Source: Acidobacteriota bacterium | Lineage (GTDB): Bacteria; Acidobacteriota; UBA4820; DSQY01 | Assembly: GCA_049968315.1 (NCBI GenBank) | Contig: JBMFRA010000001.1 | Span: 62,044-126,043, forward strand | Length of the DNA stretch: 64,000 nucleotides | Direction: 5' to 3' | Program-made: the position numbers and the translations under genes | Part shown: one piece after another, positions 2,634 to 48,622 of the stretch | Layout of the letters: each line of letters begins with the position of its first letter | Position numbering within the stretch: the stretch's first letter is position 1 | Notes under the pieces: model-generated | Told to the model about the DNA's origin: nothing | The model's database searches: none | The model's input: only the letters and a program-made list of their open reading frames with translations

Positions 2634-2637
2634 GGGC

Positions 2638-3606
2638 TCAAGGGACGGGAAAGCCGCCGGGGGGGATGCGGTAGGCGCCGATCTTCTCCATGACGGCGTT
2701 GAACTCGGCGACGATGGCCTCGAGGATCTCCCGCACCGAGGCCCGGCGCTTCACCAGGCCGGCCACCTGGCCCATCATCACGGAGCCCCGGGTGACGTCA
2801 CCCTCCATGACGGCGGCCCGAAGCCTTCCCACGGCCAGCCCCTCGATCTCTTCCCAGGGGGCCCCTTTGCCCTCCATCTCGTAGAACTCCTGGGTGAGCA
2901 TGTTCTTCAGGGCGCGGACGGGCTTGTTGATGGAGCGGCCGGTGACGGCGGTGGAGCGGTCGGTGGCCTTGACGATGGCGTCCTTGTAGTTGTCGTGGGC
3001 CCTCGACTCGTGGGCCACCACCAGGGCGGTGCCGAGCTGGATGCCCTGGGCGCCCAGGGCGAAGGCGGCGGCCATGCCCCTGCCGTCGGCGATTCCGCCG
3101 GCGGCGATGACGGGGATGGAGAGGGCGTCGGCCATCTGCGGAATGAGGGGCATGGTGGCGGTGTCGCCGATGTGGCCGCCGGCCTCCTCCCCCTCGGCGA
3201 CGATGGCGTCGGCGCCGGACCGCTCCAGGCGCCTCGCCAGGGCCACCGAGTTCACGACGGGAACCACGGTGCACCCCGCCTTCTTGAGCTCCTCGATGAC
3301 GGGGCCGCTGTTCCCCGCCCCCAGCGTCACCACCGGCACCCGCTCCTCCTTGACCACCTCGATGCACTGCCGGAAGTTGGGGGAGAGGAGGATCAGGTTC
3401 ACGGCGAAGGGCTTCTCCGTGAGGGTGCGGAGCTTGCGGATCTCCTCCCGGAGCAGCTCCCCCGGCATGTTGCCGGTGGCGATGCACCCCAGTCCCCCCG
3501 CCTCGCTGACGGCGGAGGCGAGGACGGCCTCCGAGACCCAGGTCATGCCCCCTTGGAGGATGGGGTAGGGGATGCCCAAGAGACGGCAGACGGCGTTGTC
3601 CTTCAT
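2638..3606 (-). CDS. fabK: Enoyl-ACP reductase II / nitronate monooxygenase family
   Basis: YPILQGGM, EGEEAGGHIG, PVIAAGGIADGRG and GQVAGLV motifs; start set at MKDNAV. Confidence 0.8.
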   Translation of the reverse strand: MKDNAVCRLLGIPYPILQGGMTWVSEAVLASAVSEAGGLGCIATGNMPGELLREEIRKLRTLTEKPFAVNLILLSPNFRQCIEVVKEERVPVVTLGAGNSGPVIEELKKAGCTVVPVVNSVALARRLERSGADAIVAEGEEAGGHIGDTATMPLIPQMADALSIPVIAAGGIADGRGMAAAFALGAQGIQLGTALVVAHESRAHDNYKDAIVKATDRSTAVTGRSINKPVRALKNMLTQEFYEMEGKGAPWEEIEGLAVGRLRAAVMEGDVTRGSVMMGQVAGLVKRRASVREILEAIVAEFNAVMEKIGAYRIPPGGFPVP

Positions 3607-4376
3607 GGTCGTTCTCCCCGCCCGGCGAGCCACCCCCCGCGCGCCAGGGCCGATCGAAAAGGTTCCAGAAGCGGTGATTCCGAAGGTCCCGCGTAACGGC
3701 CTTCCAGGGGAAGATACCCCAGACGGAGGCAGAGGCGCCAGGCCAGGATCTCCAGCTTGGGGTCCTCCATCTCTCCCGCGGCCGATTTCACAAGGATCTC
3801 CCGTACGGGAGAGAAGCGCACCGCCGGTGCGTCGGCCTCGTTGACCGACCCGTCCCCGGGGGCTTTCTCCCGGCGGGAGGGGGAGACCCGGACGGCGCAG
3901 AGGTGGATCTTCTCCGAGGACTGGCCGTGGGAGGGAAAGAAGCCCCCGCCCAGGGAGAGGACCTCCCCCGCCGCCACGCGGAAACCGGCCTCCTCCCAAA
4001 CCTCCTCCACCACGCGCCTGAGGAGCCCTTCCACCCCCCGGTCCCCCTCCTCCACGCTTCCCGCCACCGCCTCGGGGGTGTGGAGGTAGACCCGGCCGTC
4101 GGGAACGGCCAGGGGGAGGTCCTTGCGGAAGTAGACCGGAACGCGGATCCCCGGCCGCCAGGCCATGTGGGGCTCCCCCTCCTCCTCGTGGAAGAGGGCG
4201 ACGGCGACGGCGTCGTAGCCCCGCCGGTGGATGTACTCGTAGAGGTACGGCCGGGAGCGGCCGCCTCCCGGGTAGAGGTTCCGGTACTTGAGCCGCACGA
4301 GGGTGAGGAAGCCGCCCTCCCCCGGGGCCGCCTCCCCCGCCGGCTCGATGGCCACCACCTCCCGCCCCTCGGCCAT
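3603..4376 (-). CDS. NUDIX hydrolase
   Basis: Nudix-like box AGSVEEGD...RRVVEEVWEEAG, followed by FFPSHGQSSEKIHL and DPK. Confidence 0.8.
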   Translation of the reverse strand: MAEGREVVAIEPAGEAAPGEGGFLTLVRLKYRNLYPGGGRSRPYLYEYIHRRGYDAVAVALFHEEEGEPHMAWRPGIRVPVYFRKDLPLAVPDGRVYLHTPEAVAGSVEEGDRGVEGLLRRVVEEVWEEAGFRVAAGEVLSLGGGFFPSHGQSSEKIHLCAVRVSPSRREKAPGDGSVNEADAPAVRFSPVREILVKSAAGEMEDPKLEILAWRLCLRLGYLPLEGRYAGPSESPLLEPFRSALARGGWLAGRGERP

Positions 4377-4377
4377 C

Positions 4378-5217
4378 TCAGCCCTCCACGGGGTGGACGG
4401 CGAAGACCAGGGGCTTGGTCTCTTCCAGGCGGGCGGCGGGGACCTCGGGGTCGTGTTCGAAGAAGAGGGTCCAGCCCTCCCGGGCCGCCGTGGGGAGGAG
4501 GGCCCGCTTGGTCTCCAGGGTCAGGGTGGGGTGGAGGTCGTAGGCCATGATCCAGGGGAGGGGAACGTGGTGCCGGGTGGGGATCAGGTCCCCCAGATAG
4601 AGGGCCGTCTCGCCGCGGGAGCGGAGGAGCACCCCCTGCATGCCCAGCGTGTGGCCGGGAAGGGGTTTGAGGACCACGCCGGGGGCCACCTCCTCTTCGC
4701 CCTCGGCGAGCCTCAGCCGCCCCTGTTCGAAGAGAGGTTCGTAGTTCCAGGGGAGGTAAGAGGCGCGGTTGCGCTCGTGGGCCGCCCGGGCCTCCTCCCA
4801 CTCCTTCCGCTGGACGACGTAGACGGCGTTGGGGAAGGCCGCCTCCACCCGGCCGCCCTCCCCCAGGCGGGTGTTGCCGCCGGCGTGGTCGAAGTGGAGG
4901 TGGGTGTTGACGACGACGTGGATCTCGCCGGGGGAGAGGCCGTGCTCCTGGAGGGCCTCGGGGAGCCGCCACGGGGCCACGGCGTAGGTCTCGCGGAACT
5001 TCTCGTCCTCCTTGGGGCCCACCCCCGTGTCCACCAGGAGGTTCACTCCCCCGGCGCGTACCAGGAGCACCCGCGTGTCCAGGAGGATTCGGTGCTTCTC
5101 GTCGGGGGGCGCCTTCTTCTCCCAGAGGAGGCGGGGAACGACGCCGAACATGGACCCGCCGTCCAGCCGCAGGGTTCCTGCGGAGAGGGAATGGACTTCG
5201 ATGTCGCCGATTCTCAC
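4378..5217 (-). CDS. Metallo-beta-lactamase-fold hydrolase (YtnP-like)
   Basis: LDGGSMFGVVP, THLHFDHAGG, PGHT and FEHDP motifs. Confidence 0.9.
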   Translation of the reverse strand: MRIGDIEVHSLSAGTLRLDGGSMFGVVPRLLWEKKAPPDEKHRILLDTRVLLVRAGGVNLLVDTGVGPKEDEKFRETYAVAPWRLPEALQEHGLSPGEIHVVVNTHLHFDHAGGNTRLGEGGRVEAAFPNAVYVVQRKEWEEARAAHERNRASYLPWNYEPLFEQGRLRLAEGEEEVAPGVVLKPLPGHTLGMQGVLLRSRGETALYLGDLIPTRHHVPLPWIMAYDLHPTLTLETKRALLPTAAREGWTLFFEHDPEVPAARLEETKPLVFAVHPVEG

Positions 5218-5227
5218 GAGGGCCTCC

Positions 5228-6751
5228 TCAACCCTCCGGGCCCGGCAGGGCGGAGGGAAACTGCCTCAAGGGGAGAACAACGGTGAAGGTGCTTCCCTTT
5301 CCCAGGGCCGATTCCACCTCGATGGTCCCGTCCAGGAGCCGGGCGCAGCGGTCGGCGATGGAAAGGCCCAGGCCCGTCCCGGCGTAGCGCCGGGAATCGG
5401 AGCCGTCGGCCTGGCGGAACTCCTCGAAGACCCGGGAGAGCTCCTGGGGCGGGATTCCGGGGCCCGTGTCGGAGAGCTGGAGGGAGAGCCTCCCTTCCCG
5501 GGTGGAGACCTTCAGGACCGCCCCCCCCTGCCGGGTGAACTTGGCGGCGTTGCCCAGGAGGTTCACCAGGATCCGGCGGAGGAGGTCGGGGTCGGTCCAC
5601 AGGGTGGGGGGAAGGTCGCTGGAGACCTCCAGGGCCAGGGAGAGGCCCTTCTGATGGAAGAGGGGTTCGGTCTCCTCCGCCAGCCCCTGCAGGAAGGCCC
5701 GAAGGTCCACCTCCCTCTCCTTCACCTCGAAGCCCCCCCGTTTGAGTTTGGCCAGGTCCAAAAGGTCGTTGATCGTCTCCAGGAGCTGGCGGGCATTCCG
5801 GTGGAGGAGGGCCAGGTGGCGCTTGGGGGCGGGGCCCAGGGCCTCCGAGTGGGCCTGAAGCGCCTCGGCGGCGATGAGAATAGCCGTCAGGGGGGTCCTC
5901 AACTCGTGGGTGACGTTGGCCAGGAACTGCTCCTGGAGCCTCGTGGAGTCCTCCAGCCGGGCCACCGTCCGCTTGAGCTCCGAGTGCTGCTTCTGCAGCT
6001 GCTCCCGGGTGCGGTAGAACTCGCTGACGTCCCGGAGGATCCCCAGGTAGGTGGGCGGCCGGCCGGGAAACCTCGAAGGGGCGAAGGTCAGGAGGGACCA
6101 GAAGAAGGCGCCCGATTTCTTCTGGACGCGGACCAGTTTGTTCTGGATCCCTTCCCGGAGGATGCGGGCCGTTCCCAGGAGGCGGAAGCGCCGGATCTCG
6201 TCGGGGGGGAGGAAGTCCGAGGGGTTCAGGGTGCGGCCCAGGAAGTCCCCCGGCTCGTGGCCGGTGACCGTCCGGAAGGCGGGGTTCACGTAGGAGACCG
6301 AGAGGTCCCGCTCCAGGACGAAGATCACGTCGTTGGAGCTCTCGGTCAGGACCAGGAACTGGTTGCGGATCCGGTCGTAGTCCCTGACCAGCGTCTGGGC
6401 GGCGGAGGCAGCCAAGAGCCAGAGGACGCGCCCCCGGCCGTCGCCCAGGGGATCCTCCACGGCGAGGTAGGCGCGGGGGGAAATGCCGGGGCGGTCCACC
6501 ACCACCGGCATGCCCGCCTCCCCTGGCGGCGGAAGGGGGGACGGGCCCCGCATCTGGTGCCAGAGGGAGGGGCAGGCCTCTTCCAGGGGAAGGCCTTCCA
6601 GGGGGGTCTCGGGGGTCTCCAGCAGACGGCGGGCGGCCGGGTTGGCGTAACGGACCCGGTCCCCGAGGTCCAGGACCAGGACCGCCTGGGGCAGGAGTTC
6701 GAAGTACCGCCGGAGGGGCTCCTCCGGAAGGGGCCGGCCGCCTTCGCCCAC
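5228..6751 (-). CDS. Cytoplasmic PAS-domain sensor histidine kinase
   Basis: Two PAS-like segments, H-box FLANVTHELRTPL, N-box NLLGNAAKF, and DTGPGI and GTGLGL boxes. Confidence 0.92.
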   Translation of the reverse strand: MGEGGRPLPEEPLRRYFELLPQAVLVLDLGDRVRYANPAARRLLETPETPLEGLPLEEACPSLWHQMRGPSPLPPPGEAGMPVVVDRPGISPRAYLAVEDPLGDGRGRVLWLLAASAAQTLVRDYDRIRNQFLVLTESSNDVIFVLERDLSVSYVNPAFRTVTGHEPGDFLGRTLNPSDFLPPDEIRRFRLLGTARILREGIQNKLVRVQKKSGAFFWSLLTFAPSRFPGRPPTYLGILRDVSEFYRTREQLQKQHSELKRTVARLEDSTRLQEQFLANVTHELRTPLTAILIAAEALQAHSEALGPAPKRHLALLHRNARQLLETINDLLDLAKLKRGGFEVKEREVDLRAFLQGLAEETEPLFHQKGLSLALEVSSDLPPTLWTDPDLLRRILVNLLGNAAKFTRQGGAVLKVSTREGRLSLQLSDTGPGIPPQELSRVFEEFRQADGSDSRRYAGTGLGLSIADRCARLLDGTIEVESALGKGSTFTVVLPLRQFPSALPGPEG

Positions 6752-6760
6752 CGTCTCACC

Positions 6761-7501
6761 TCACCCCTTGGGCCACGGTTCCACGGGATTCTCCAGGCGG
6801 ATCCCCGCCGTTTCCACCGCCACCACGTCCCCTGGAGAGAGGGGGCCGACGCCGGCGGGGGTACCCGTGGCGACGAGGTCCCCGGGAAGGAGGGTCATGG
6901 CCCGGGAAATGTAGCGGAGAAGAGCAGGGATGGGGAAGGCCATATCCGAGGCCTGTCCCTCCTGGACCAGGCGGCCGTTGAGGAAGGTCCGCACCTGGAG
7001 GGCTTCCCAGTCGGGGGCCGTCTCGATCCACGGGCCAACGGGGCAGAAGGTGTCGAAGGACTTGGCCCGGGAGAACTGCCCGTCCAGCTTCTGGAGGTCC
7101 CGTGCGGTGACGTCGTTGAGGGGGGTGACCCCCAGGAGGTAGGAGAGGGGGTCCTCCGCCTCGCCGAGGCGGTGGCAGGTCCTTCCCACCACCAGGGCGA
7201 TCTCCCCCTCGTACTCCACGCGGGAGGAATCCTCGGGGAGCAGGATGGTTCCCCCGGAGGGCAGAAGGGCCGAGGGGGCCTTCAGGAAGAGGAGGGGCCG
7301 CTCGGGCATGGGGTTGCCCAGTTCTCGGGCGTGTTCCCGGTAGTTTCGCCCCACGCAGACGATCTTGGAGGGGCGGGCGGGGGGAAGGAGGACCGCCTCC
7401 TCCACCGGGATCGCCTCCCCCGCCGGGCCCCGGAGAAGCCCGGGGGTCTCCTGGCAGACGGCCACTTCCCGTCCTTTCCACAATACGCGGCCTATCCGCA
7501 T
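6761..7501 (-). CDS. Fumarylacetoacetate hydrolase family protein
   Basis: KIVCVGRNY, EYEGE, NDVTARD, KSFDTFCPVGP and TGTPAGVG motifs. Confidence 0.92.
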   Translation of the reverse strand: MRIGRVLWKGREVAVCQETPGLLRGPAGEAIPVEEAVLLPPARPSKIVCVGRNYREHARELGNPMPERPLLFLKAPSALLPSGGTILLPEDSSRVEYEGEIALVVGRTCHRLGEAEDPLSYLLGVTPLNDVTARDLQKLDGQFSRAKSFDTFCPVGPWIETAPDWEALQVRTFLNGRLVQEGQASDMAFPIPALLRYISRAMTLLPGDLVATGTPAGVGPLSPGDVVAVETAGIRLENPVEPWPKG

Positions 7502-8334
7502 GAGAGCGCCTCCTCCAGGGACTCCTGGGCGAGGAAGCCCCGGTAGACGGGGCGCGCCTCCCCCGTGAGCCGGCAGAAAGGAGACCGGCCGCCGGAAGGG
7601 GCCACCTCCAGTTCCTTTCCCGACCGCGGGAGAAGCCGCACGGGGCCGGAGACGAGCCTCCGGCTCCACAGGACGGAGGCCACCGCCACGGCCCCCGTGC
7701 CGCAGGCCAGGGTCTCGCCCTCGACCCCCCGTTCGAAGGTCCGCACCCCGTAGGGCGGTCCCCCGGCCAGGGAGACGAAGTCCACGTTGGCGCCTAAGGG
7801 CCCCGCCTCGGGTGCGCTCCGGAGGGCCGCCCCCAGGGAAGCGACGGGGAGGGCCGAGAGGTCCCGGACGAAGACCACCAGGTGGGGGACGCCCGCCAGG
7901 ACCCGCAGGCCGGGCACGGTGCCGCGGGGCAGGGAGACCTCCACCGGCGCGGGCTCCTCGGGGGGAAGGGGAACCTCCACCTCCACCCGGCCGTCGGGGA
8001 GGACCCGGGCCGAGACGACGCCGGCACCCGTTTCCAGGGACATGGTGCGCCCCGCCGCCACCTTCAAGAAGGCGTAGCGGGCGGCGCAGCGGGCGCCGTT
8101 GCCGCAGAAGGGGCTCTCGGAGCCGTCGGGGTTGAAGAGCCGGAGGCGGAGGTGGGCCTTGGTGGAGGTCTCCAGAAGGACGAGACCGTCGGCTCCCACC
8201 GAGAGGCCGCGGCGGCAGAGCCCCCGGGCCAGCCGGGGAAGGGGCGCCGCGTTCCAGGCCCCCTGGCGGTTGTCCCCCAGGATGAAGTCGTTGCCCGCCC
8301 CCGAAAACTTGTAGAACTCCAGCGGTTCAGCCAT
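7492..8334 (-). CDS. dapF: Diaminopimelate epimerase
   Basis: [13 protein letters not shown] and [14 protein letters not shown], with both catalytic Cys present. Confidence 0.93.
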
Positions 8335-8473
8335 GGCTCGAAGAAAGTGCCGCGGCCGGCGGTGCCGGAGAGGCGCCCGTCCGGCGGGGGTAGGGATCGC
8401 CCTTCCGCCCGCAGGCGAGAATGGCGGCGAGGAGGACGAGGAGCAGGACCAGCGGTGCGGTCTTCCGTGCCAC
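8327..8473 (-). CDS. Small lipoprotein, LptM/YifL-like
   Basis: 48-aa ORF from GTG with a basic N-terminus, hydrophobic stretch and lipobox ILAC followed by GRKGDPYP. Its stop overlaps the dapF start. Confidence 0.6.
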
Positions 8474-8554
8474 GGCGAACCTCCGGGCCGATTCTACCAC
8501 GTCCGGGGGCCCGGGGGGCTTTTCCCGGAGGGCCCTTTCCCTCAAAATGGGACC

Positions 8555-8854
8555 ATGGAGAGGCAGCGGGAGACCCGGGCCTGGCGGGTGACGGGGCGGG
8601 TCCAAGGGGTGGGTTTCCGGTACTTCGTGGCGGCCCACGCGCGGTCCTTGGGACTCAAGGGGTGGGCCCGGAACCTCCTGGACGGGTCGGTGGAGGTCCA
8701 GGCGGCGGGGCCTTCGGAAGCCCTCGCCGCCCTGGAGGGGCACCTTCGGGAAGGACCTCCCCACGCCCGGGTGGAGGGGCTCCATCCCCTGCCGCCCTCC
8801 CCGAGGCTTGAACGGGCGCAGACCTTCACGGTAGAATCGGAGTTCGGCTGGTAG
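8555..8854 (+). CDS. acyP: Acylphosphatase
   Basis: GRVQGVGFR and [13 protein letters not shown] signatures. Confidence 0.92.
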
Positions 8855-8866
8855 GGCGCCGCGTGT

Positions 8867-8943
8867 GTGCCTGTAGCTCAGATGGATAGAGCACCTGCCT
8901 CCTAAGCAGGGGGTCGTGGGTTCAACTCCCGCCAGGCACACCA
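8867..8943 (+). tRNA. tRNA-Arg(CCT)
   Basis: GTGCCTG/CAGGCAC acceptor stem, anticodon arm CCTGC-CTCCTAA-GCAGG, GGTTCAACTCC T-arm, encoded CCA. Confidence 0.97.
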
Positions 8944-8977
8944 CACCGCCGGCGCCGCCCTTTGGGAAGGACCGGAC

Positions 8978-9727
8978 ATGGCATCGAGGAAGCTCACCAA
9001 GCAGCAGATGCGGGAGGACCAGTTCCGCGACGCCCTCACCGAGGTCTACGTCGGCACGCTCACCCACCTGGAGCGCCATTGGAGGGCGTACCTCCTGGGG
9101 CTCTTCGTGGCCGCCGCCGCGGGGGCGGGCGGGTGGTACCTGTGGGACCGCCACCGGGAGAAGGTCCAGGAACGCCAATACCTCCTCGGCCAGGTGATGG
9201 AGGCCCTCACCGCCCCCGTGGGCGAGAAGGCCGATCCCGGGGCCTCCCGGAGCCTCACCTTCTCCAGCGAGCAAGCGCGGCAGAAGGAGGTGGAGAGCCG
9301 GTTCCAGGCCTTCTCCAAGAACGCCTCCGGTGCCGCCCGCAAGACCGCCGCCCTGCTGGAGGCCGCCGTCCTCCTCCAGAAGGGGAAGGCCGACGAGGCC
9401 GTCTCCCGCCTGACCCCCCTGGTATCGGACGGGACCTACGGCCCCCTGGCCCTCTCCATGAGGGCCGCCGCCCACGAGGGGGCCGGCCGCTACGACCGCG
9501 CCGAGGCCGATTACAAGACCTTGGCGTCCCTCCAATCCCCCCTGCTGCCGCCGGGGGAGGGGGCCTGGCTCCTGGGCCAGTTCTACGAGCGGCGGGGCCA
9601 GAAAGACAAGGCGCTCTCCTCCTACCAGCAGGCGGAGAAGGCCCTTCCCCAAGGGGAAGAAGGCAAGGAGCCGGGGCTCCTACAGCGCGTGAAGAAGCGA
9701 ACGGAGGCCCTCAAGGAAGGCGCATGA
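8978..9727 (+). CDS. Membrane-anchored tetratricopeptide-repeat protein (YfgM-like)
   Basis: N-terminal KLTKQQMREDQF, one TM helix, then TPR-like helices. Confidence 0.7.
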   Translation: MASRKLTKQQMREDQFRDALTEVYVGTLTHLERHWRAYLLGLFVAAAAGAGGWYLWDRHREKVQERQYLLGQVMEALTAPVGEKADPGASRSLTFSSEQARQKEVESRFQAFSKNASGAARKTAALLEAAVLLQKGKADEAVSRLTPLVSDGTYGPLALSMRAAAHEGAGRYDRAEADYKTLASLQSPLLPPGEGAWLLGQFYERRGQKDKALSSYQQAEKALPQGEEGKEPGLLQRVKKRTEALKEGA

Positions 9728-18998: not shown

Positions 18999-20366
18999 TC
19001 AGCCGCGGAACCAGCAGGGTCCGTAACAGTCGGGCTGGTTGGTGATCCGTTTCACCCCCGAGCCGTCCCACCGCATGATGTAGATCTGGTAAGAGCCGGA
19101 GCGGTTGCTGGAAAAAGCCAGGTACCGGCCGTCGGGGGACCAGGAGGGCGATTCGCTGTTTCCCGGCCCGTCGGTGAGGTAGGTCACCTCGCCGCTGTTG
19201 AGGTCCATCACGGCGATGTCGAAGTGGCCGTTGCGGAAGGTGCTGTAGGCGATCTTGTCCCCCCGGGGGGACCAGGCGGGCTGGTCGCACCGCCCGCTTC
19301 CCTCGGGGGAGATCCGTTTCACGTTGGCGCCGTCCCGGTCCATCACGTAGATCTGGGGGGAGCCGGAGCGGTCGGAGGTGAAGGCGATCTTCTGGTCGTC
19401 GGGGGACCAGGTGGGTGCCGTGTCGATGGCCCAGGAGACGGTGAGGCGCGTGAGGGCGCGGCTCTCGAGGTTGAGGAGCCAGACGTCGGGGTTCCCCGCC
19501 CGGGAGGAGCAGAAGGCCACGAAGCGCCCGTCGTGGGAGAAGCGGGGATTGGCGTTGAGGCCCTCCCCTTCGCCGTAGAGTTTGGTCCTCCGCCCCTGGC
19601 GGTCCAGGAGGAAGAGCTCCTGGCGGTCCTTGAGGATGGAGGTGAAGACCATCCGGTCCCCCTTGGGGCTCACGTCGGGGGTGACGTTGAGCTGGCCCAT
19701 GGCCGTGAGGCGGATGAGCCCCTTGCCGTCGTAGTCGCAGAGGAAGATGTCCTCGGTGGCCCCCAGGTGGGAGGTGAAGAGGATCTGGCTCGTGGGGAAG
19801 GTCCCGGCCCCGAAGAGGTAATCCAGGATCACGGCGGAGAGGTTGTGGGCCAGGGTTCGGAAGTCGGACTCGGGGCCCTTGATCCGCTTTCCCGTCACCA
19901 TCTCCTTGCGCTTGACGTCGAAGAGGCGCCCCTCCAGGGTGAGCTGGCCCTCCTGGGCGTGGAGGGTGGAGAGGAGGAGGTAGTCGGCGTTCATGGCCTT
20001 CCAGGCGTCGTAGTCCACCCGGTCCTCGAGGTTCATGCCGGAAAAGAGCGCCGGGTCCACCAGGCGGAAGTAGCCGGAGAAGTCCAGGTCGTCGGCGACG
20101 ATGGAGAGGATCTCCCGGCCCTGGACGGCGGTTTGCCCGTCGGTCTTGCAGGGGGGTACGGCGATGGCGGCGCGGGTGAAACCGCTCTCGGTGATGACGC
20201 CGGTGATCTGGTTCCCCTGGGGAACGGCCCCGGGGGCCGGCGGGGGAGAGGGCGGGGTCTGGGCCAGGAGTGCCAGGGAGGCCCCGAGGAAAAACGCGAG
20301 GGGGGCCGCTTTCACCATGGTGGCCGGCATCGGCGCACCGGGTGCCCGGTTTCCGTCGTTTCGCAT
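18999..20366 (-). CDS. tolB: Tol-Pal beta-propeller protein TolB
   Basis: Signal peptide, TolB-N segment (DDLDFSGYF) and multiple PD40 repeats (PxWSPDG). Start uncertain. Confidence 0.85.
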   Translation of the reverse strand: MRNDGNRAPGAPMPATMVKAAPLAFFLGASLALLAQTPPSPPPAPGAVPQGNQITGVITESGFTRAAIAVPPCKTDGQTAVQGREILSIVADDLDFSGYFRLVDPALFSGMNLEDRVDYDAWKAMNADYLLLSTLHAQEGQLTLEGRLFDVKRKEMVTGKRIKGPESDFRTLAHNLSAVILDYLFGAGTFPTSQILFTSHLGATEDIFLCDYDGKGLIRLTAMGQLNVTPDVSPKGDRMVFTSILKDRQELFLLDRQGRRTKLYGEGEGLNANPRFSHDGRFVAFCSSRAGNPDVWLLNLESRALTRLTVSWAIDTAPTWSPDDQKIAFTSDRSGSPQIYVMDRDGANVKRISPEGSGRCDQPAWSPRGDKIAYSTFRNGHFDIAVMDLNSGEVTYLTDGPGNSESPSWSPDGRYLAFSSNRSGSYQIYIMRWDGSGVKRITNQPDCYGPCWFRG

Positions 20367-41730: not shown

Positions 41731-42222
41731 TCACGAAGGGGGAGCGAAACGGGGCGGGATCCCCCCCACCACCAGGGTGTCCCCCCGGCGGACGCCGTGG
41801 CGCCGGCAGAAGCCGCCGTTCACCTCCAGGACGTGGCGGATGGGGAGGCCGGGGGAGTAGTTGGGGCAGGGGTCGGCGGGGCAGGGGGGGACCTCCTCCG
41901 AAATGTCGGCGATCCGGAAGGAAGCGTCCAGCCACAACAGGTCCAAGGCAATCTTGCAGTTCTTCATCCAGAAGGGTCGAACCTCGTCGGTGTCGAAGAG
42001 GAAGAGCATCCCCCGGTCCTCGGGGAGGTCCTCCACGAACATGAGGCCCCGGGCCTGATCGAGAGGCGTCAGGGCCAGGTCCACCCGGACGGTGGTGCCG
42101 TCGGGGAAGACCACCCAGGGCGAGGACACGGCATCCTGGGTGCCGGTGCCGGAAGGAGGCGGTGGGGCGGGAGAACAGCCCCCCGCCAGGAGGAGGGCGA
42201 GGAGGAGGGCGGCGGGCTTCAC
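41731..42222 (-). CDS. DUF192 family lipoprotein
   Basis: Signal with AGGC; ARGLMF, GMLFLF, FWMKN and VLEVNGG motifs. Confidence 0.88.
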   Translation of the reverse strand: MKPAALLLALLLAGGCSPAPPPPSGTGTQDAVSSPWVVFPDGTTVRVDLALTPLDQARGLMFVEDLPEDRGMLFLFDTDEVRPFWMKNCKIALDLLWLDASFRIADISEEVPPCPADPCPNYSPGLPIRHVLEVNGGFCRRHGVRRGDTLVVGGIPPRFAPPS

Positions 42223-42776
42223 GGGAGCCTCGGCGCCTCGCGGATCCAACTCCGCATGCGGAAGAGGTAGTGAAACCCCGAAAAAACGGTGAAAAAGGCC
42301 ACCGCCCCCATGAGGAGGCGGGCGGCCCCGCCGGGAAAGCCGAAGGAGTTCTGCAGAAGGACCGCCACGGCGTAGGCGATCTGCGCGAAGGTCGTACACT
42401 TCCCCGGAAGGGAGGGGGGGAAGGAGCGGATCCCGAAGGAGAGGTTCAGGATGAGGGAGAGGGTCACGATGATGACGTCCCGGGCGATGGTGAGAACGGG
42501 GACCCAGACGGGAATGGGGTGGGTGATGCCCGTCTCCGGAAGGGCCAGGGCCACGTAGGTGGCCGTCAGCATCAGCTTGTCGGCCATGGGGTCCAGGAAG
42601 GCGCCCAGCTCGGAGCGCTGGTCGAAGAACCGGGCGATGAAGCCGTCCAGTGCGTCGGTGAGACCGGCCCCCACGAAGAGGAAGAGGGCCGCGGTGGGGT
42701 GGCCGTAGACCACCGCCAGGATGAAGAGCGGGATCAGCGCGATCCTCAGGACCGACAGGAGGTTGGGAATGGTCAT
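42219..42776 (-). CDS. CDP-alcohol phosphatidyltransferase (second paralogue)
   Basis: TIPNLLS and DALDGFIAR...GAFLDPMADK motifs. Confidence 0.9.
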   Translation of the reverse strand: MTIPNLLSVLRIALIPLFILAVVYGHPTAALFLFVGAGLTDALDGFIARFFDQRSELGAFLDPMADKLMLTATYVALALPETGITHPIPVWVPVLTIARDVIIVTLSLILNLSFGIRSFPPSLPGKCTTFAQIAYAVAVLLQNSFGFPGGAARLLMGAVAFFTVFSGFHYLFRMRSWIREAPRLP

Positions 42777-42813: not shown

Positions 42814-43698
42814 TCACTCCAGGGAGTCGCCCACCTGGGCTTGGCCCCCGCCCTCCACCACGCCGATGGAGAGGTGCTCGCCGATGATCTTCGTCACGGT
42901 GACCGTGCCGATCCGCGTCTTCTCCTGCCCCAGAACCTTGCCGGTCTCGGGGTCGGTGATGGTCTCCCCGACGCGGAAGAGCTTGAACTGCTGGCCTTCC
43001 TTGATCCCGTCGGTGCTTCCGAGGTTGAGGTAGACCTTGCCCTCCGAGACCTTCGCCACCTTGCCGGTGACCAGCGCCGCGGCCCCCAGCCCCTCCTTGA
43101 GGGCTTCGGTGCTCTGGACGATCTTCTGGGCCAGGCGGTCCACCGCCGGCTGGAAGATCTTCCGCGCCTGCGACTCGTCCCAGTCGGTTCCGCCGCCGAT
43201 GCCGGCGATGCGCACCTTTCCGAAGGAGGTGGTCCCCGATTCACTCCCGGTGAAGAGAATCTCCCCCGTGGTGGTGTTCACCAGCCGAAGGCTCAACGTC
43301 CCTTCGGCGGTGGTCTTGCCAAAGTCCACGCCGACCTTGAAGAAGGCCTCCCCGCCGGACTTCCGGATGGAGAAGTCGGTGACGGCGCCCAGGACCACCA
43401 GCTGGCAGCCCAGCAGTTTCCCCACCTTGACGGCGGTCTTGTCGTCGATGGCCCCCGAGAGGGAGAGTTCCTGCTCCTGGAGGACCGACTCCAGCTCCTT
43501 GCGCTCGATGACCCGGAACTGCCCCGACTGGACCAGCTTTTCCACCAGCCAGTCCTCGATGGCCGGCCCCAGGCGGCCGTGGCCGTACTGGGACTCGTTG
43601 CGGATCTTGAGAACGGCGATCCTCGGCTTCTGGGCAAAGGCCGAGAGGGTAAGGGCGGCACAAAATGCGACCAGCACGAAAAGGCTGAGGCGCTTCAT
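42814..43698 (-). CDS. Secreted CsgG/HfaB-family protein with an FlgT-C-like domain
   Basis: Signal peptide; KPRIAV, FRVIERKELESVLQEQ, GKLLG and LRLVNTTTGEI (CsgG-like); then VYLNLGSTDGIKEG...ITDPETGKVLG (FlgT-C-like). Confidence 0.8.
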   Translation of the reverse strand: MKRLSLFVLVAFCAALTLSAFAQKPRIAVLKIRNESQYGHGRLGPAIEDWLVEKLVQSGQFRVIERKELESVLQEQELSLSGAIDDKTAVKVGKLLGCQLVVLGAVTDFSIRKSGGEAFFKVGVDFGKTTAEGTLSLRLVNTTTGEILFTGSESGTTSFGKVRIAGIGGGTDWDESQARKIFQPAVDRLAQKIVQSTEALKEGLGAAALVTGKVAKVSEGKVYLNLGSTDGIKEGQQFKLFRVGETITDPETGKVLGQEKTRIGTVTVTKIIGEHLSIGVVEGGGQAQVGDSLE

Positions 43699-43719
43699 GG
43701 CTTACCTCCTCGAGAACCC

Positions 43720-43749
43720 AGGATACAGGCCTCAAAAGGCCACTGTCAA
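43720..43749 (-). promoter_or_regulatory. Internal sigma70-type promoter for the CsgG-like gene
   Basis: TTGACA-18nt-TATCCT followed by an AGGAGG RBS. Confidence 0.55.
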
Positions 43750-44805
43750 ACGGTTGGCGCTCTGGGATACGATCTTGGCCCGGGGCCATAGCTTTCGGAC
43801 CTCCTGGGCCAGGTCCGAGGCGTCGCCCTGCATGGAAACGCCCAGGGTGGCACCCTCGGGGGACGATTCCCGCACCACCGCCTCTTGAATGCCGCGGCCC
43901 TCCGCCAGGAGGCGCTTGGCCACCTCTTGGGCCTTCCCGCCGCCTCCCTGGATCTCCAGCGTGAGCATGCGGGTGGAGGAGGACTCCTTGGCCCACTGGG
44001 TGGTGATCTGCCGCACGAGGTCGTTTCCGGCCACCATGGCGGCCTGGCGGGAGGCCTCCTGGAAGCCGGCCTCCCCGACGTGGACGGCGGTGCCGCTGCC
44101 GGAGGCGGTGCCCAGGAGTTCCCGGGTATCGGCCTTGAGGGCCTTCAGGGAGAGGGCCGCCTGGTAGGAGGTGAGGTTGGACTTCCTCACCCTCCCGCCG
44201 GCGCCGCCGGAGACCTTCCCCAGCACCACCACCTCGGCGCCATAGCGCTTCAGGAGGTCGGTCTGGCCGCCCTCGCCCATTCCCCAGAAGGAGGCGCCTC
44301 CCGCGCTCTCCGGCGCCTCCACCACCAGGAATCCCTTGTCCCGGAAGAGGCGTTCCAGGACCGACTTGGCCGTCCCCTGGTCGTCCTCGACGGCAACCGC
44401 CAGGCGGGGCATCTTCATCCGTCTGAGGAGGAGCCCCAGAGAGCCGAGGTCATCGGCCAGGTTGCCCTCCCGGACCTCCGCTTCCACCGTGACGCTGTAC
44501 AGGTTGGCTTCCAGGTCGGGCTTTTCCGAGAGGATCCGGTAGTTGGCCACGTACCCCCGGGTCTGGGTGAAGATCTTGTCCGCGAGGAGCGCATTGTTCT
44601 GCACCAGCGTCTCCGAGTCCACCAGGGTCCCGATGACCTGCTCCACGGCGTTGCGGAGGGCGCTCTCCAGGGCCCGGTCCCGCGCCTTGGCGGCATCGCC
44701 CCCGAGGACCGCCGCCGTTCCGGTGGCGGTGACGCGGCTCTGGGCCGGGGCCGCCAGCGACGCCGCGAGAAGGAGCATGCCGAAGAAAACCAGTCGGTGC
44801 TTCAT
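43732..44805 (-). CDS. Secreted protein with an FlgT N-terminal-like domain
   Basis: Signal peptide; VTATGTA...ARDRALESALRNAVEQVIGTLVDSETLV...YSVTVEAEV, then an alpha/beta middle domain. Confidence 0.72.
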   Translation of the reverse strand: MKHRLVFFGMLLLAASLAAPAQSRVTATGTAAVLGGDAAKARDRALESALRNAVEQVIGTLVDSETLVQNNALLADKIFTQTRGYVANYRILSEKPDLEANLYSVTVEAEVREGNLADDLGSLGLLLRRMKMPRLAVAVEDDQGTAKSVLERLFRDKGFLVVEAPESAGGASFWGMGEGGQTDLLKRYGAEVVVLGKVSGGAGGRVRKSNLTSYQAALSLKALKADTRELLGTASGSGTAVHVGEAGFQEASRQAAMVAGNDLVRQITTQWAKESSSTRMLTLEIQGGGGKAQEVAKRLLAEGRGIQEAVVRESSPEGATLGVSMQGDASDLAQEVRKLWPRAKIVSQSANRLTVAF

Positions 44806-44842
44806 GGACCACCTCCGTTCGTGAAGGTCGTTTCTTTTCATT

Positions 44843-46697
44843 CTACTCTCCTTGGATCTCCGCGGACCCCGCCGGCGGCTGCGGCCGGCCCCGCCGTCTT
44901 CCCCGGATCCGTACCACCGGAATGGGGTCGGCCTTCCCCTTGACGGTGACCGGATCCATGGGTTCCCAGTCGTAGGTTTCGTCGAAGCCGGGGATGGCGG
45001 CCCGCAGGCGGTCGGGAAGGATCACGTCGTCCCGTACCGCCAGCCCCTGCAGGCGGGAGGCGAGGTTCACCGTGTCCCCGATGACGGTGTAGGCGAAGTT
45101 GGTCTTGGATCCGTTGTTCCCGACCACCACCGGCCCCGCATTCACCGCCACGCCGATGTGGAGCGGGGGCTTACCCTCGGCGGCGAAGCGCTCCCTGAGG
45201 AGGGCGGCCCGCTCCTGCATGGACACGGCGCAGGAGACGGCGCGGCTCGTGTGGTCCTCCATGGCCAACGGGTCGCCGAAGAAGGCCAGGATGGCGTCGC
45301 CGATGAACTTGTCCAGGGTGCCGTCGTGGGCGAAGAGGACCTCGGTCATCTCGGTGAAGTACTCGTTGAGGAGGGCGCTCACCTGCTCCGGGGGGAGCCG
45401 TTCCGAGAGGGAGGTGAAGCCCCGGATGTCGGAGAAGAGGATGGAGAGCTCCTTGCGCCGTCCCCCCAGCTGGACGAGTCCGGGGTTCTGGAGGAGGGTC
45501 CTCGCCACGTTGGGGGAGACGTACCGGCTGAAGAGGCGCTCCACCTCCCGCCTTCCCCGGTAGTCGGCCACCCGGTGGTAGGCGAAGGACCCGGCGGCGT
45601 AGGCCATGGCCGAGAGGAGAAGGGCCAGCAGGGGAAGGGGGCGGCCGGCCCGCACGGCGAGGAGCCCCGCCCCCCCCGAGGATCCCCAGCAGCCCCATCC
45701 AGAGGGCGAGGGCGGTGAAGGGCCTCAGCGCCCATCCGGTGAGGAGGACCGCGAGGAGGACGAGGGCGGCCCACAGGAACGCCAGGGCCTTTCCTCCGAG
45801 GGGAAGGATCTCCTCGCCGTCGAGGAGCGCCTCCAGGGCCTGGCCGTGGACCTCGACCCCGGCCATGGTGTGGCTGCGCAGTTCACCGCTCCCGTGGCTC
45901 CTGGCGGGGAGGGGGACGGAGAAGAAATCGTGCTGGCTCGGCCTCGTGGAGCCGACGAGCACGACCTTGTTTCGCACCGGCTGGAGGGAGGGCCCGCCCT
46001 TGAGCACCTCCGCGAAGGAGAGGCGGGGCAGGGAGCCGTCGCCCCCCCGGAAGGGGATCCACCAGCCGGTGCCGTCGGTTCGGAAGGGGTGGTCCTCCAG
46101 CCAGAGGGTGCCCCCCTCCCACCGGGCCTGGGGGGGCTTCCCCGGGAACCAGAGGAGGCGGGCGCAGGCCAGGGCCAGGGGAAGGGGGCCCGTGCGCCCG
46201 TCCCCCTGGAGGTACGGAGGGGGCAGCCGGCGGAAGATCCCGTCGCGGTCCGAGAGGAGGTCGATGGAGCCCAGGGCCACCGCCCGGCGGCGGAAGCGCT
46301 CCAGCGGGTAGAGTCCGTTTCCGGGGCTGCACGCCAGCACCGTATCCACCCGCGCCAGGGCTGCCTCCAGGGCTCCGTCCTCCCCTTCCTCCCGGGGCTC
46401 CAGGAAGAGGACGTCCAAGGCCACCAGCGAGGCACCGGCGTCCCAGAGGCGCCCCAAGAGGGCGGCGTACTCGGAGCGGGTGGGGTTGCGCCCTCCCAGG
46501 GAACGGAAATCCTCGTCGGAGAGGGTGACCAGAAGGACCTTTCCCGAAGGGGGGCGGCTTCGGGCCCGGAGGAGAATGTCGTAGAGGCGCCCTTCCATCC
46601 CCTGGACGGCCCCGAAGGCCAGGGGGAGGACCACCCCGAGGGTCAGGGCGAGGCCCGTCAGCAGGCCTCCCCGGCGGAAGGGGGGAAGGGTCGCCAT
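44843..46697 (-). pseudogene. CHASE2-domain class III adenylate cyclase, frameshifted in a G8 run (real lesion, switch or sequencing error)
   Basis: CHASE2 motifs LDVLF, DRDGIFRR, NKVVLVG and MAGVEVH plus TM helices are in one frame. The cyclase core FSDIRGFT, DKFIGDA and YTVIGDTVNLASRL is in another. Deleting one base at 45670-45677 joins them. Confidence 0.85.
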
Positions 46698-46704
46698 GGG
46701 CCCC

Positions 46705-47757
46705 TCAGCGAGCCGTGAGCCAGAGGTCCCCTCCGGAGGCGGGGGTGAACCTGCGGCCCTCGACGCCGCCGACGTCGGGACGAACGATGACCCGGACCTT
46801 TCCATCCCTAAGGATCCCCGACTGCCGGTCGGCCTCCTGGAGACGGGCGGCCTCCTCCTTCGTCACGACCACGTCGGCCCGCAGGGCTCCGCGGGCCGCG
46901 GCGGCCCGGACCACCAGGCCTTCCTCCCCCCGGGGGCGGGGCGAGGGCTCCCGCTGGGCCGTCTCCAGGGGCGGCCGGGCGATGAGGGCCAGGGTGAGGA
47001 GGGGAGAGGTGAAGAAGCCCGGACCGAAGGTTCCCTGGGGTTCCGGGGGGGCGGTGACGTAACGGGCGAGCATGGCCTCCCGGGCCCTCGAGGGCTTGAC
47101 GGTCTTGGGACCGTAGACCTCGTTTCCCTGGGGATCGACGATCCGCATCTGGAGGGCCGGTTTGAGGCCCGCCTCCCGCCCATCCACCGTCACGGCCCCG
47201 AAGGAGGCGAGGGAGGAGGGGGCGGGGGCTTGGGAAGGGGCCGGCGGCGGAGCCGAGGATTCCCGGGAACGGGCCTGGGGGGGCGGCGGGGGAGGAGGCG
47301 CCTCCGGCTCGGGCGGAAGGGTCACCACCGCCACCTCGGAGGCGATGCCGTGGACCCCGTTGATGGGGACCTCCAAGGCCACGACGGTCCGGTCCCCCCG
47401 CGTCTCCTCCGAAAGGACCTTCCCTCCCTGGACGATCCCCCGGACCCGGACCTTCAGGGCCTCGAAGGACTCCAGGCGCCGCTCGGCGTCCACGGGGAGG
47501 CGCAGGGCCAGACGCAGCGCGGCGGCCTGGGCCTTGACCAGCGCCGTGCGGCGGGACTCCACCAGGGCCTGGGCCCGGGGAACCCCGGCGGTCAGAGGCA
47601 CCGACGCCTCGGTGCGGATCCACCCGGCGTCCCAGTCCACCGTTCCATCGGGGAGGCTCTCCCGGTAGGGGGCCAGGGCGGGCTCCCCGGTGAGGGCCGT
47701 GAGGGCGATCAGAAGCAGGCCTCCAAAGGCCGCAGCGGATTTGATGCGAGGGCGCAT
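46705..47757 (-). CDS. Secreted LPP20-like protein with a Pro-rich linker
   Basis: Signal-like N-terminus; GTVDWDAGWIR...RRTALVKAQ and VTVDGR...KPALQMRIVDPQGNEVYG. Confidence 0.62.
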   Translation of the reverse strand: MRPRIKSAAAFGGLLLIALTALTGEPALAPYRESLPDGTVDWDAGWIRTEASVPLTAGVPRAQALVESRRTALVKAQAAALRLALRLPVDAERRLESFEALKVRVRGIVQGGKVLSEETRGDRTVVALEVPINGVHGIASEVAVVTLPPEPEAPPPPPPPQARSRESSAPPPAPSQAPAPSSLASFGAVTVDGREAGLKPALQMRIVDPQGNEVYGPKTVKPSRAREAMLARYVTAPPEPQGTFGPGFFTSPLLTLALIARPPLETAQREPSPRPRGEEGLVVRAAAARGALRADVVVTKEEAARLQEADRQSGILRDGKVRVIVRPDVGGVEGRRFTPASGGDLWLTAR

Positions 47758-47825
47758 GCCTTTCCCCTCCTTTTGGAGAGAGGGTATCACCTCTCCGGGG
47801 AATGGGAAGGGGCGGCAAGGGGCTT

Positions 47826-47841
47826 TGTGACGGAAATCACG
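47826..47841. promoter_or_regulatory. CRP-type binding site
   Basis: TGTGA-CGGAAA-TCACG, a 9/10 match to TGTGA-N6-TCACA, in the gap between the crp-like gene and the LPP20-like gene. Confidence 0.72.
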
Positions 47842-47880
47842 CCCCGGGGGCCTGACGGCGGACCTCGCCGGTGAAGGTAA

Positions 47881-48561
47881 TCAGAGAGGGCGCTTGTAGA
47901 GAAGGATCTTCCGGCCCACCAGCCGAAGGACCCCCTGGCTCTCCAGCTCCCGCAGCAGGCGGTTCACCGTCTCGCGGCTGGTCCCGATGATGTGGGCGAT
48001 CTCCTCCTGGGTCGGGCGGTTGAAGAGGATGGAACCGTCGGCCAGCCGCCGTCCCTCCCGTTCGGCCAGTCCGTTGAGAAAGCGCGCCAGGCGGCCGAAG
48101 GTGTCCTCCAGCACCAGGCTGGCCAGGCGCTGGGAGGTGTCCCGGAGGCGGCGGGAGAGGACCTGGATCAGCTCCATGGCCAGGGAGGGGCTCTCCGCCA
48201 GGGCGGCGAGAAAGCTCTCCCGGGAGAGGACCAGGCAGACGGTGTCCTCGGCGGCGCTGACGTTGGCCGAGCGCCTTTCCTGGGGGTCGAAGAGGGCCAG
48301 CTCTCCCACGATCTCCCCCGGCCCCAGGAGGGCCAGGGTGACCTGGCGCCCGTCGCCCCCGTCCAGGTGGCACTTCACCCGTCCCGAGAGGACGATGTAG
48401 AGGCTGTCCCCGGGGTCGCCGAACCGGAAGAGGACGGCACCCTTGGGCCAGGACCGCTCTTCGGAGAAGCGTAGGAGGTTCTTGAGGTGGGGCGGGTCCA
48501 GCGCCGAGAAGAAGTCGATCTGCTTGAGAAAACGCAGCTGGGTCATTAGAGCATCCTCCAT
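47881..48561 (-). CDS. Crp/Fnr family cAMP-binding transcriptional regulator
   Basis: cNMP pocket GELAL...RSA; HTH TQEEIAHIIGTSRETVNR. Confidence 0.93.
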   Translation of the reverse strand: MEDALMTQLRFLKQIDFFSALDPPHLKNLLRFSEERSWPKGAVLFRFGDPGDSLYIVLSGRVKCHLDGGDGRQVTLALLGPGEIVGELALFDPQERRSANVSAAEDTVCLVLSRESFLAALAESPSLAMELIQVLSRRLRDTSQRLASLVLEDTFGRLARFLNGLAEREGRRLADGSILFNRPTQEEIAHIIGTSRETVNRLLRELESQGVLRLVGRKILLYKRPL

Positions 48562-48622
48562 CGGTACACCCCCGGCCAAGCGAAACCGGGGGGGCGGCGG
48601 CCCCCCCGGCTGGACGCGGCGG

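Follow-up and report, generated by a model that had tools for sequence, protein, structure and literature searches.

A predicted CHASE2 adenylate cyclase in one operon with FlgT-, Lpp20- and CsgG-like exported proteins in an Acidobacteriota family

What does a membrane-bound adenylate cyclase do in the midst of genes for exported envelope proteins? This question is raised by a locus at positions 42,814 to 48,561 of a 64,000-nucleotide (nt) stretch of DNA, hereafter the window, from an Acidobacteriota bacterium (assembly GCA_049968315.1, contig JBMFRA010000001.1). The assembly is a draft metagenome-assembled genome (MAG) of 113 contigs that is 98.3% complete, and near-identical contigs are present in sequencing runs labelled hot springs metagenome. 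As an original prediction made from the letters alone had described, the locus comprises five co-oriented genes on the minus strand, encoding a regulator (crp), an exported protein here called g2, a CHASE2 cyclase, a FlgT-like protein and a CsgG-like protein with a FlgT_C domain. That prediction saw in them a self-contained cyclic AMP (cAMP) circuit. Our comparison points to a unit that is both smaller and less isolated: an operon of g2, the CHASE2 cyclase and the FlgT-like and CsgG/FlgT_C-like genes, in which the cyclase and the exported proteins probably function together while tied into a wider cellular cAMP network. The observations to be accounted for are the gene content, the motifs, the conservation of the linkage and of a regulator box, and a CHASE2 subtype confined to the cyclases that are linked to g2; the interpretation that we build on them is drawn from gene linkage and predicted folds. 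The features of the locus are as follows.

47881..48561, minus strand: crp, CRP/FNR-family regulator, 226 amino acids (aa)
48588..48606, minus strand: terminator-like hairpin after hfq, directly upstream of crp
47826..47841: CRP-type palindrome cGTGA-N6-TCACa in the spacer between crp and g2
47781..47789, minus strand: candidate extended -10 element (TGaTACCCT)
46705..47757, minus strand: g2, exported Lpp20/Tp0624-like protein, 350 aa
44843..46697, minus strand: predicted CHASE2 class III adenylate cyclase, in two frames in this assembly
45670..45677: C8 run (G8 on the coding strand) with one surplus base
43732..44841, minus strand: exported FlgT-like protein
42814..43698, minus strand: exported CsgG-like protein with a FlgT_C/TsaP-like C-terminal domain

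Linkage of the cyclase to the exported proteins

The likely start of the cyclase, the ATG at 46697, is preceded by a GAGGGG ribosome-binding site and lies 8 nt beyond the stop codon of g2 (46705-46707). A single nucleotide separates the cyclase stop from the FlgT-like open reading frame (ORF), and 33 nt separate the FlgT-like from the CsgG-like gene. With gaps of 8, 1 and 33 nt, the packing from g2 to the CsgG-like gene is operon-like. Linkage in related genomes, on which the original prediction depended, was found throughout: g2, the cyclase and the FlgT-like and CsgG-like genes occur together in all 16 relatives' loci, drawn from six genera, and g2 directly precedes the CHASE2 cyclase in 17 of 17 loci of this Acidobacteriota family. 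The FlgT-like gene was present in every one of 24 family genomes and in none of the 16 others first sampled. Since the flanking genes miaA, hfq, pgsA and rpsA are themselves mostly syntenic in the 16 family loci, family synteny alone proves little.

The association reappears in a distant phylum in another gene order. Three Desulfobacterota loci (L088, L095 and L116) have the arrangement CsgG, FlgT, g2, cyclase. Among 61 genomes sampled from that Desulfobacterota order, g2 of this type was found in only three, and both newly found genomes carry it directly upstream of a CHASE2 cyclase, as do all five Desulfobacterota loci overall. No crp gene lies near these loci. We scored the cyclases with one profile for the catalytic domain and another for CHASE2, the latter built on Acidobacteriota sequences alone. 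The five g2-linked Desulfobacterota cyclases reached 110.7-121.5 bits with the CHASE2 profile and 202-207 bits with the catalytic profile, and seven paralogous CHASE2 cyclases, encoded in three of the source genomes, reached 29.9-73.2 and 196-245 bits, respectively. The sensor domains of the g2-linked cyclases form their own subgroup, and their catalytic domains are not separable from those of the paralogues. Because the CHASE2 profile separates the groups and the catalytic profile does not, it is the periplasmic sensor that appears to track linkage to g2, which is what a direct partner would predict. The coupling of cyclase to exported proteins that had been proposed is thus borne out, as far as sequences can do so, by an adjacency that persists (17/17 and 5/5) despite the rearranged order and by the shared CHASE2 subtype.

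One further locus, L042, scored 27.4 bits with the CHASE2 profile and 185.4 bits with the catalytic profile; its CHASE2 cyclase belongs to another subtype and is accompanied by a DUF4384 gene and two FlgT-like genes. Its contig (NYYS01000066.1) is filed under a Woesearchaeota archaeon MAG, yet its FlgT-like genes and CHASE2 cyclase are typical of bacteria, and the archaeal filing may be a binning error.

In this lineage, then, an envelope triad appears to have taken in a membrane adenylate cyclase. We favour a model, to which we give about an even chance, in which the triad is coupled to the CHASE2 cyclase through contact with g2 and is read out by CRP. The periplasmic CHASE2 domain would read the state of the triad, most likely via g2; the cyclase would respond by making cAMP; and a CRP-type regulator would bind a TGTGA-N6-TCACA box before g2 and adjust transcription of the triad together with the cyclase. 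The best candidate for this regulator would be the crp gene next door in most genomes. That g2 contacts CHASE2, that the cyclase produces cAMP, that CRP binds and which sign the feedback has are inferences from comparison of sequences. The signals sensed by CHASE2 were reported to be unknown in 2016 (PMC5192318), and the one case with a known signal that we found is that of Sinorhizobium meliloti, in which a plant protein signal is passed on by an outer-membrane protein (PMC13001267). The present locus offers a candidate CHASE2 partner, given that g2 is encoded immediately upstream of one CHASE2 subtype in two phyla that are far apart.

The S. meliloti case also supplies the closest known system, the cluster clr (SMc02175), cyaD1 (SMc02176), smc02177 (FecR) and smc02178 with its Clr-box TGTT-N8-AACA (PMC5498481). 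The precedent of CyaD1 and Clr cited in the original prediction agrees with this literature, and the accompanying statement that the combination is not a described system has to be qualified to that extent: the cluster is built alike, and a cascade from CHASE2 cyclases to CRP is known from S. meliloti. What is new here is the triad across phyla, the adjacency of g2 and cyclase, and the CHASE2 subtype. In both organisms a CHASE2 adenylate cyclase stands beside a CRP-family regulator, with exported neighbours behind a regulator box, and in S. meliloti the signal enters through an envelope protein: its CHASE2 cyclases take the plant protein signal through the outer-membrane protein NsrA and act via Clr (PMC13001267). 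The neighbours differ. Those of S. meliloti, one with a FecR domain and one whose fold is unknown, were shown to be outputs and stand behind a box of the type TGTT-N8-AACA, whereas here a FlgT/Lpp20/CsgG-like triad shares one operon with the cyclase, behind a box of the Escherichia coli CRP type.

The S. meliloti results bear on a second reading of the locus, which we consider unlikely: that the triad is output only, an exported envelope structure or secretion device switched on by cAMP-CRP, with no sensing role, and that the cyclase merely shares its promoter. In S. meliloti, smc02177 (FecR), smc02178 and smb20495 (TPR) are Clr targets that are dispensable for signal perception (PMC5498481), and in our locus a CRP-type box lies upstream of the whole operon. 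Moreover, CRP control of the triad can exist alone, because a genome of another Acidobacteriota family (G073, 36.5% GC) carries crp, g2, FlgT and CsgG without a cyclase. In this genome the order is miaA-hfq-hflX-crp-g2-FlgT-CsgG (locus L150, G073:C1:170600-185800, positions 2191-9117), the crp stop lies 13 nt before g2, which encodes 513 aa, and protein identity is about 35%; the link between crp and the triad is accordingly old and independent of the cyclase. An output-only role nonetheless fits poorly with the Desulfobacterota loci, which keep g2 by the cyclase with neither a nearby crp nor a CRP-type box, and with the fact that g2-linked cyclases share their sensor domain and not their catalytic domain. 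A regulatory target, furthermore, need not share an operon with the cyclase.

Folds of the triad and its spread beyond the family

All three exported proteins, g2, FlgT-like and CsgG-like, have ordinary signal peptides without a lipobox, as read from their sequences, consistent with the three signal-peptide proteins that had been placed around the cyclase. Pfam searches confirmed the predicted domains of the locus (cNMP_binding, CHASE2, Guanylate_cyc, CsgG, FlgT_N and FlgT_C) and gave no match for g2 at E<=0.01. In the g2 protein a Pro-rich linker joins an Lpp20/SHS2-like N-domain to a second domain. Its model (predicted local distance difference test score, pLDDT, 77) matched Treponema pallidum Tp0624 (5jir) with a Foldseek E of 1.5e-11 and superimposed on it with Z 20.3 and a root-mean-square deviation of 3.4 A over 225 residues. 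Residues 36-333 of the model align to 67-325 of the Tp0624 chain, so that both tandem domains, D1 and D2, are matched. Unlike Tp0624, g2 has no OmpA-like D3 and carries the Pro-rich linker and a conserved C-terminal tail. D1-D2 has been described as a tandem unit of unexplained function with possible contacts to outer-membrane proteins (PMC5104382). The label 'LPP20-like' first given to g2 finds no basis in a Pfam match of its own; it rests on the model, whose N-domain aligns to Lpp20 (5ok8) with Z 7.3, and on relatives, which bear the label 'LPP20' in the Atlas and, in a sample of 20, matched LPP20 at E<=0.01 in nine cases and FlgT_N alone in three more. The g2 family is a large one: 5529 representatives fall within E<=1e-3, and 993 within <=1e-30. 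Two NCBIfam matches were set aside: that to LipL46 (3.9e-10) lies far under its cut-off, and that to BimA falls on the low-complexity Pro-rich stretch.

The FlgT-like protein begins with a FlgT_N (SHS2) domain (Pfam 3.3e-7; 31.2 bits, cut-off 28.8), continues with a middle domain that resembles CsgG, PelC and LptE, and ends in an alpha/beta domain. Its model (pLDDT 83) matched FlgT (3w1e) at a Foldseek E of 1.2e-11 and also the Vibrio LPHT ring (8z5n); the template-modelling score to FlgT is only 0.26 because the domains are placed differently. The middle domain matched GNA1162, PelC, CsgG and LptE in the model search. The full FlgT architecture is not contained in this one polypeptide, as FlgT_C sits on the neighbouring CsgG-like protein. 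The latter matches Pfam CsgG (1.5e-27; 96.8 bits against a cut-off of 20.8; positions 7-195), FlgT_C (4.3e-6) and LpoB (7.6e-8) and is the sole CsgG-family gene in the genome. Among solved structures it aligns to CsgG (4uv2) over aa 50-158, to the TsaP-like chain 6ve2_O over aa 202-269, and to TsaP (3jc8). The alignment to CsgG covers the first membrane-hairpin region and leaves the second hairpin unaligned.

The triad thus shares its domain kit with the flagellar H-ring and basal-disk proteins FlgT, FlgP/Lpp20 and FlgO, and with CsgG and TsaP. The same kit is found in the H and T rings of Vibrio (FlgT, FlgO and FlgP) and in the FlgP basal disk of Campylobacter, relatives of the triad proteins show weak FlgO matches, and an SHS2 fold is described as common to FlgP, Lpp20 and FlgT (PMC12222027). 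In contrast to Vibrio FlgT, the C-domain is here on the separate CsgG-like protein, and the triad is known from genes and predicted folds. FlhA and flagellin were not found in the 98.3%-complete genome, and since neither a flagellar export gene nor flagellin was found, the triad is taken to be non-flagellar here. The CsgG-like protein resembles the CsgG curli channel in its CsgG domain and TsaP in its C-domain; it differs from the curli channel in having no lipobox, and no csgE/F/A/B-like neighbours were seen. Papers joining at least two of FlgT, LPP20 and CsgG all concern flagellar motors among the matches listed. No account of a CHASE2 cyclase with such partners was found among the listed titles and abstract openings of a literature search whose coverage excludes most subscription journals, so that one may exist elsewhere.

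How widely the triad occurs was addressed with a profile scan, which returned 165 FlgT-like relatives; the best 80 loci were used, 79 after leaving out a sister genome. Neighbours were called by local profiles, with Pfam spot checks on 68 proteins. A g2-like gene is adjacent in 61 of these 79 distant loci and a CsgG-like gene in 54; a FecR-domain gene adjoins 36, a gene combining TPR and SLH domains adjoins 32, and a CHASE2 cyclase adjoins four. The phyla include Calditrichota, WOR-3, Fermentibacterota, Thermodesulfobacteriota, Myxococcota and Nitrospirota, and the three exported proteins would accordingly represent an envelope triad spread over many phyla. In the phylum of the window, 30 of 201 sampled Acidobacteriota genomes gave a match, and ten loci from other families had the FlgT-like gene in all ten, the CsgG-like gene in nine and the cyclase in none. 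Because a cyclase is lacking from 75 of the 79 distant loci and from these ten, the core job of the triad does not need cAMP. A quick tree of 96 FlgT-like proteins placed the cyclase-linked rows in separate clades with four label changes, between which gains and losses cannot be distinguished; L098 and L104, labelled 'no cyclase' in it, are loci cut at a contig end.

Several local arrangements were observed in these loci. Behind the triad, in L041, L075, L053 and 33 others, comes the FecR-domain protein, which is about 250-270 aa long and bears either a signal peptide or a membrane anchor, and the TPR+SLH protein of Calditrichota lies between g2 and the FlgT-like gene (32/79). In WOR-3 and Fermentibacterota (for example L084, L094 and L109) the order is CsgG-like (about 200 aa, without FlgT_C), g2, FlgT-like, and all three proteins have lipoboxes, by a regular-expression count that is rough.

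These neighbours invite a broader proposal, which we advance tentatively and regard as doubtful: the triad may be an undescribed non-flagellar sensor of envelope state, present in many phyla, that signals to interchangeable partners, either a FecR-domain protein or a CHASE2 cyclase of one subtype. If so, the partner would be the FecR-domain protein in Calditrichota and Myxococcota, and the cyclase in one Acidobacteriota family and some Desulfobacterota; g2, with its Tp0624 D1-D2 fold, would be the first protein ligand for CHASE2 outside the S. meliloti case; and in Acidobacteriota the signal would feed back, in a closed loop through cAMP and CRP, onto the operon that encodes the complex. A partial parallel is the BiofilmReg operon of Burkholderia, which consists of a response regulator, a LysM/FecR protein and a CHASE2 histidine kinase (PMC5192318). 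There, too, a CHASE2 sensor is encoded with an exported accessory protein, and FecR genes stand beside the triad in 36 of the 79 distant loci; the Burkholderia output differs in being a histidine kinase, and its accessory protein belongs to another family. We see the main value of the locus in a testable CHASE2 partner and in the recognition of a widespread non-flagellar FlgT/Lpp20/CsgG-like triad. It gives a first functional handle on the g2 family, whose 5529 representatives have no family model of their own, and on Tp0624 D1-D2, and it presents the FlgT/FlgP/FlgO domain kit as a conserved module where no flagellar genes were found, which bears on the origin of flagellar outer rings.

The cyclase and its split reading frame

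The sensor part of the cyclase matches CHASE2 almost end to end (4.9e-41; profile positions 4-256 of 257), with hydrophobic segments read from the sequence on both sides of it, and Guanylate_cyc is matched in another frame (1.7e-23). Alignment to solved cyclases (6fht, 2w01 and CyaB, 3r5g) located the two metal Asp residues, one within ILFSDIRGF and the other within KFIGDAI. In DKFIGD, the Lys occupies the position held by Glu in the guanylate cyclase Cya2 (2w01) and by Lys in the engineered adenylate-cyclase derivative 6fht, the Thr of YTVIGD is as in CyaB, and Asn and Arg are present in VNLASR. All the residues listed in the original prediction (metal Asp, Lys, Thr and the Asn/Arg pair) were recovered in this way. 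With the roles that we take these positions to have, the catalytic site is predicted to be of the ATP type (class IIIb-like, Lys/Thr).

The change of frame is due to one surplus base in the C8 run at 45670-45677 (plus strand). The CHASE2 and membrane part extends down to about 45677 and the catalytic part continues from there, both frames being open across the run, so that the cyclase is not encoded in a single reading frame in this assembly. In all 16 relatives, by contrast, it is one intact ORF of 607-622 aa, and the closest relative has one base fewer at the run. Sequencing runs were also searched as contigs (best share of sampled words 0.46; shares <0.2 were not used). A contig of run X1 (17,668 nt; 97% identical, with 62 differences in 2101 nt) is without one base at 45676, and a 250-nt contig of run X4 likewise; both contigs are separate from the source reads and show the intact frame in near relatives. 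We conclude that the frameshift is an assembly error or a very recent lesion, and that the cyclase-triad system is under selection in the family. The possibility raised earlier, that the cyclase is disrupted and decaying, therefore holds for the frame as assembled here and does not extend to the relatives.

Whether the gene is truly broken in this strain, as a fresh pseudogene or through a homopolymer on/off switch that leaves the circuit open, is a separate matter, compatible with any reading of the locus, and we rate this at somewhat below an even chance. Homopolymer runs are prone to slippage, and that the surplus base lies in a C8/G8 run and splits the frame counts for a real lesion. On the other side, both halves are otherwise open and similarly close to the nearest relative (86% identity in the CHASE2 part, 89% in the catalytic part), the gene is intact in all 16 relatives and in the two contigs of other runs, and the window comes from a 113-contig draft. 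The run is, moreover, interrupted in G002 and in the X1 contig, so that there is no conserved contingency tract. On this ground a programmed frameshift or phase variation as a conserved feature was rejected; because the C8/G8 run is not conserved, a built-in switch is unlikely.

The regulator, its box and the wider cAMP network

The product of crp has a cNMP-binding domain (cNMP_binding, 1e-26) and a CRP-type helix-turn-helix (HTH_Crp_2, 1.5e-14; Crp, 1.2e-6), which make it a member of the CRP/FNR family, and among solved structures it comes closest to GlxR (4byy, 8e-42) and M. tuberculosis Crp (3d0s). Against NCBIfam NF008732, the equivalog model of E. coli CRP, it scored 122.9 bits where the cut-off is 266, and it is therefore a family member and no orthologue of E. 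coli CRP. The phosphate-binding cassette GE...R[ST]A reads GELALFDPQERRSA and the recognition helix SRETVNR, assuming for these residues the roles that they have in E. coli CRP. Both motifs had been noticed before; GE..R[ST]A and [ST]RETV[NS]R align to GlxR and are retained in 15 of 15 aligned orthologues.

The box at 47826-47841 lies about 77 nt before the g2 ATG (47757). The window contains three GTGA-N6-TCAC sites against 0.38 expected, and one of 100 shuffles gave three. The other two (19042-19055 and 19174-19187), 132 nt apart, lie inside the tolB ORF (18999-20366, minus strand) and, both being of the form GGTGA..TCACC within an ORF, are probably chance coding matches. We surveyed the operon's upstream region in 16 genomes from six genera, scoring 10 half-site positions. 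Matches at nine of the ten positions were found in eight genomes, comprising two of five in genus g1 (the window and G002), four of four in g3 and two of two in g4, with half-sites kept while spacers vary. G008 and G005 have TGTGA-N6-TCATG (8/10), ending 21 nt before a -10-like hexamer, with crp elsewhere in both genomes. No box was found in three of the five g1 genomes, whose spacer measures only some 50 nt, or in the three g6 genomes, in two of which crp is missing (G013) or broken (G021). The box is thus retained in five of six genera. In the window, G002 and g4 it ends 39 nt before a TGnTAnnnT element, which would put its centre near -60, and this spacing recurs in G002, G015 and G007; in g3 it ends 19 nt before TGgTACTAT, with its centre near -40. 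Conservation of the box in five of six genera makes it plausible that a CRP-type protein controls the operon to which the cyclase belongs, which would amount to a feedback loop; of the earlier claim, the box stands and the loop is a plausible consequence. No CRP-type box was found upstream of the Desulfobacterota or L042 operons, where the best matches reach 6-7 of 10. At L088 951-966 there is a perfect palindrome, ATTGACAGCAGTCAAT, some 55 nt ahead of the CsgG-like gene with which this Desulfobacteraceae operon starts, which may be a site for another regulator.

That the neighbouring regulator is dedicated to the operon was not upheld. It adjoins the operon in 12 of 16 family loci, and in one of those 12 (G021; L033/L137, G021:C6) it is broken, with three stops (two TGA, one TAA) inside the match and a frame change. 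The loci of G008 and G013 lack it, and one locus ends too early to judge. In G008 and G005, two genera, miaA-hfq-crp lies together on another contig, and in G013 no crp orthologue was found at 1e-20. Nor is the circuit self-contained: Guanylate_cyc is matched seven times in the genome, in about five loci, and cNMP_binding 10 times, and boxes of this kind also stand before unrelated genes. There are 67 GTGA-N6-TCAC sites genome-wide, most of them GGTGA..TCACC inside ORFs, and about eight [TC]GTGA..TCACA sites lie outside ORFs on a crude ORF map, preceding, among others, genes for a SpoIIE-type phosphatase, a ParA-like/HTH_25 protein, an MBL hydrolase, a sulfite-reductase-like protein and a glycine-zipper protein. 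Such [TC]GTGA-N6-TCACA sites may form a small CRP regulon. In the source genome (G000) sites near gene starts are at C6:52946, C9:19932, C12:53161, C13:12812, C19:9999, C47:3530 and C53:8445.

These data bear on a third reading, under which the locus is inherited synteny with no dedicated circuit, crp being a general regulator that travels with miaA-hfq and the box one of a broad regulon. Synteny in the family covers everything from the gene preceding miaA through to rpsA, crp stays with miaA-hfq where the operon lies elsewhere, cyclases and cNMP proteins are many, and [TC]GTGA-N6-TCACA sites stand before the SpoIIE-type phosphatase, the ParA-like protein, the MBL hydrolase and other genes. 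We nevertheless hold this reading to be distinctly improbable: the order crp-g2-FlgT-CsgG survives in a family of 36.5% GC at about 35% protein identity, genus g6 lost the box together with crp, and inherited synteny leaves the cyclase-triad link in other phyla unexplained.

Several results nonetheless weigh against the model in which the triad signals through the cyclase and CRP. The cyclase is frameshifted in this assembly, and the flanking housekeeping genes are syntenic throughout the family. With about five cyclase loci and 10 cNMP-domain matches, this cyclase may feed another regulator and this regulator may be fed by another cyclase, and boxes like that of the operon precede unrelated genes. 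The crp gene is linked foremost to miaA-hfq and lies apart from the operon in G008 and G005, whose 8/10 box matches are weak and not significant alone; the box is absent in six of 16 genomes, three of them of the window's own genus. Cyclases are missing from 75 of 79 distant triads and from all ten loci of other Acidobacteriota families. Finally, the exported neighbours of S. meliloti cyaD1 were tested and were not needed for perception (PMC5498481).

Two further features were noted at the downstream end of the operon. A promoter-like sequence, TTGACA-18-TATCCT (43720-43749, minus strand), extends over the end of the FlgT-like gene, immediately ahead of the CsgG-like gene, and is the sole such site in 6.2 kb, with 0.1 expected. 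The pgsA gene (CDP-alcohol phosphatidyltransferase; 42219-42776, minus strand) starts 37 nt past the CsgG-like gene and follows it in all 16 relatives' loci, and it may be co-transcribed with the operon.

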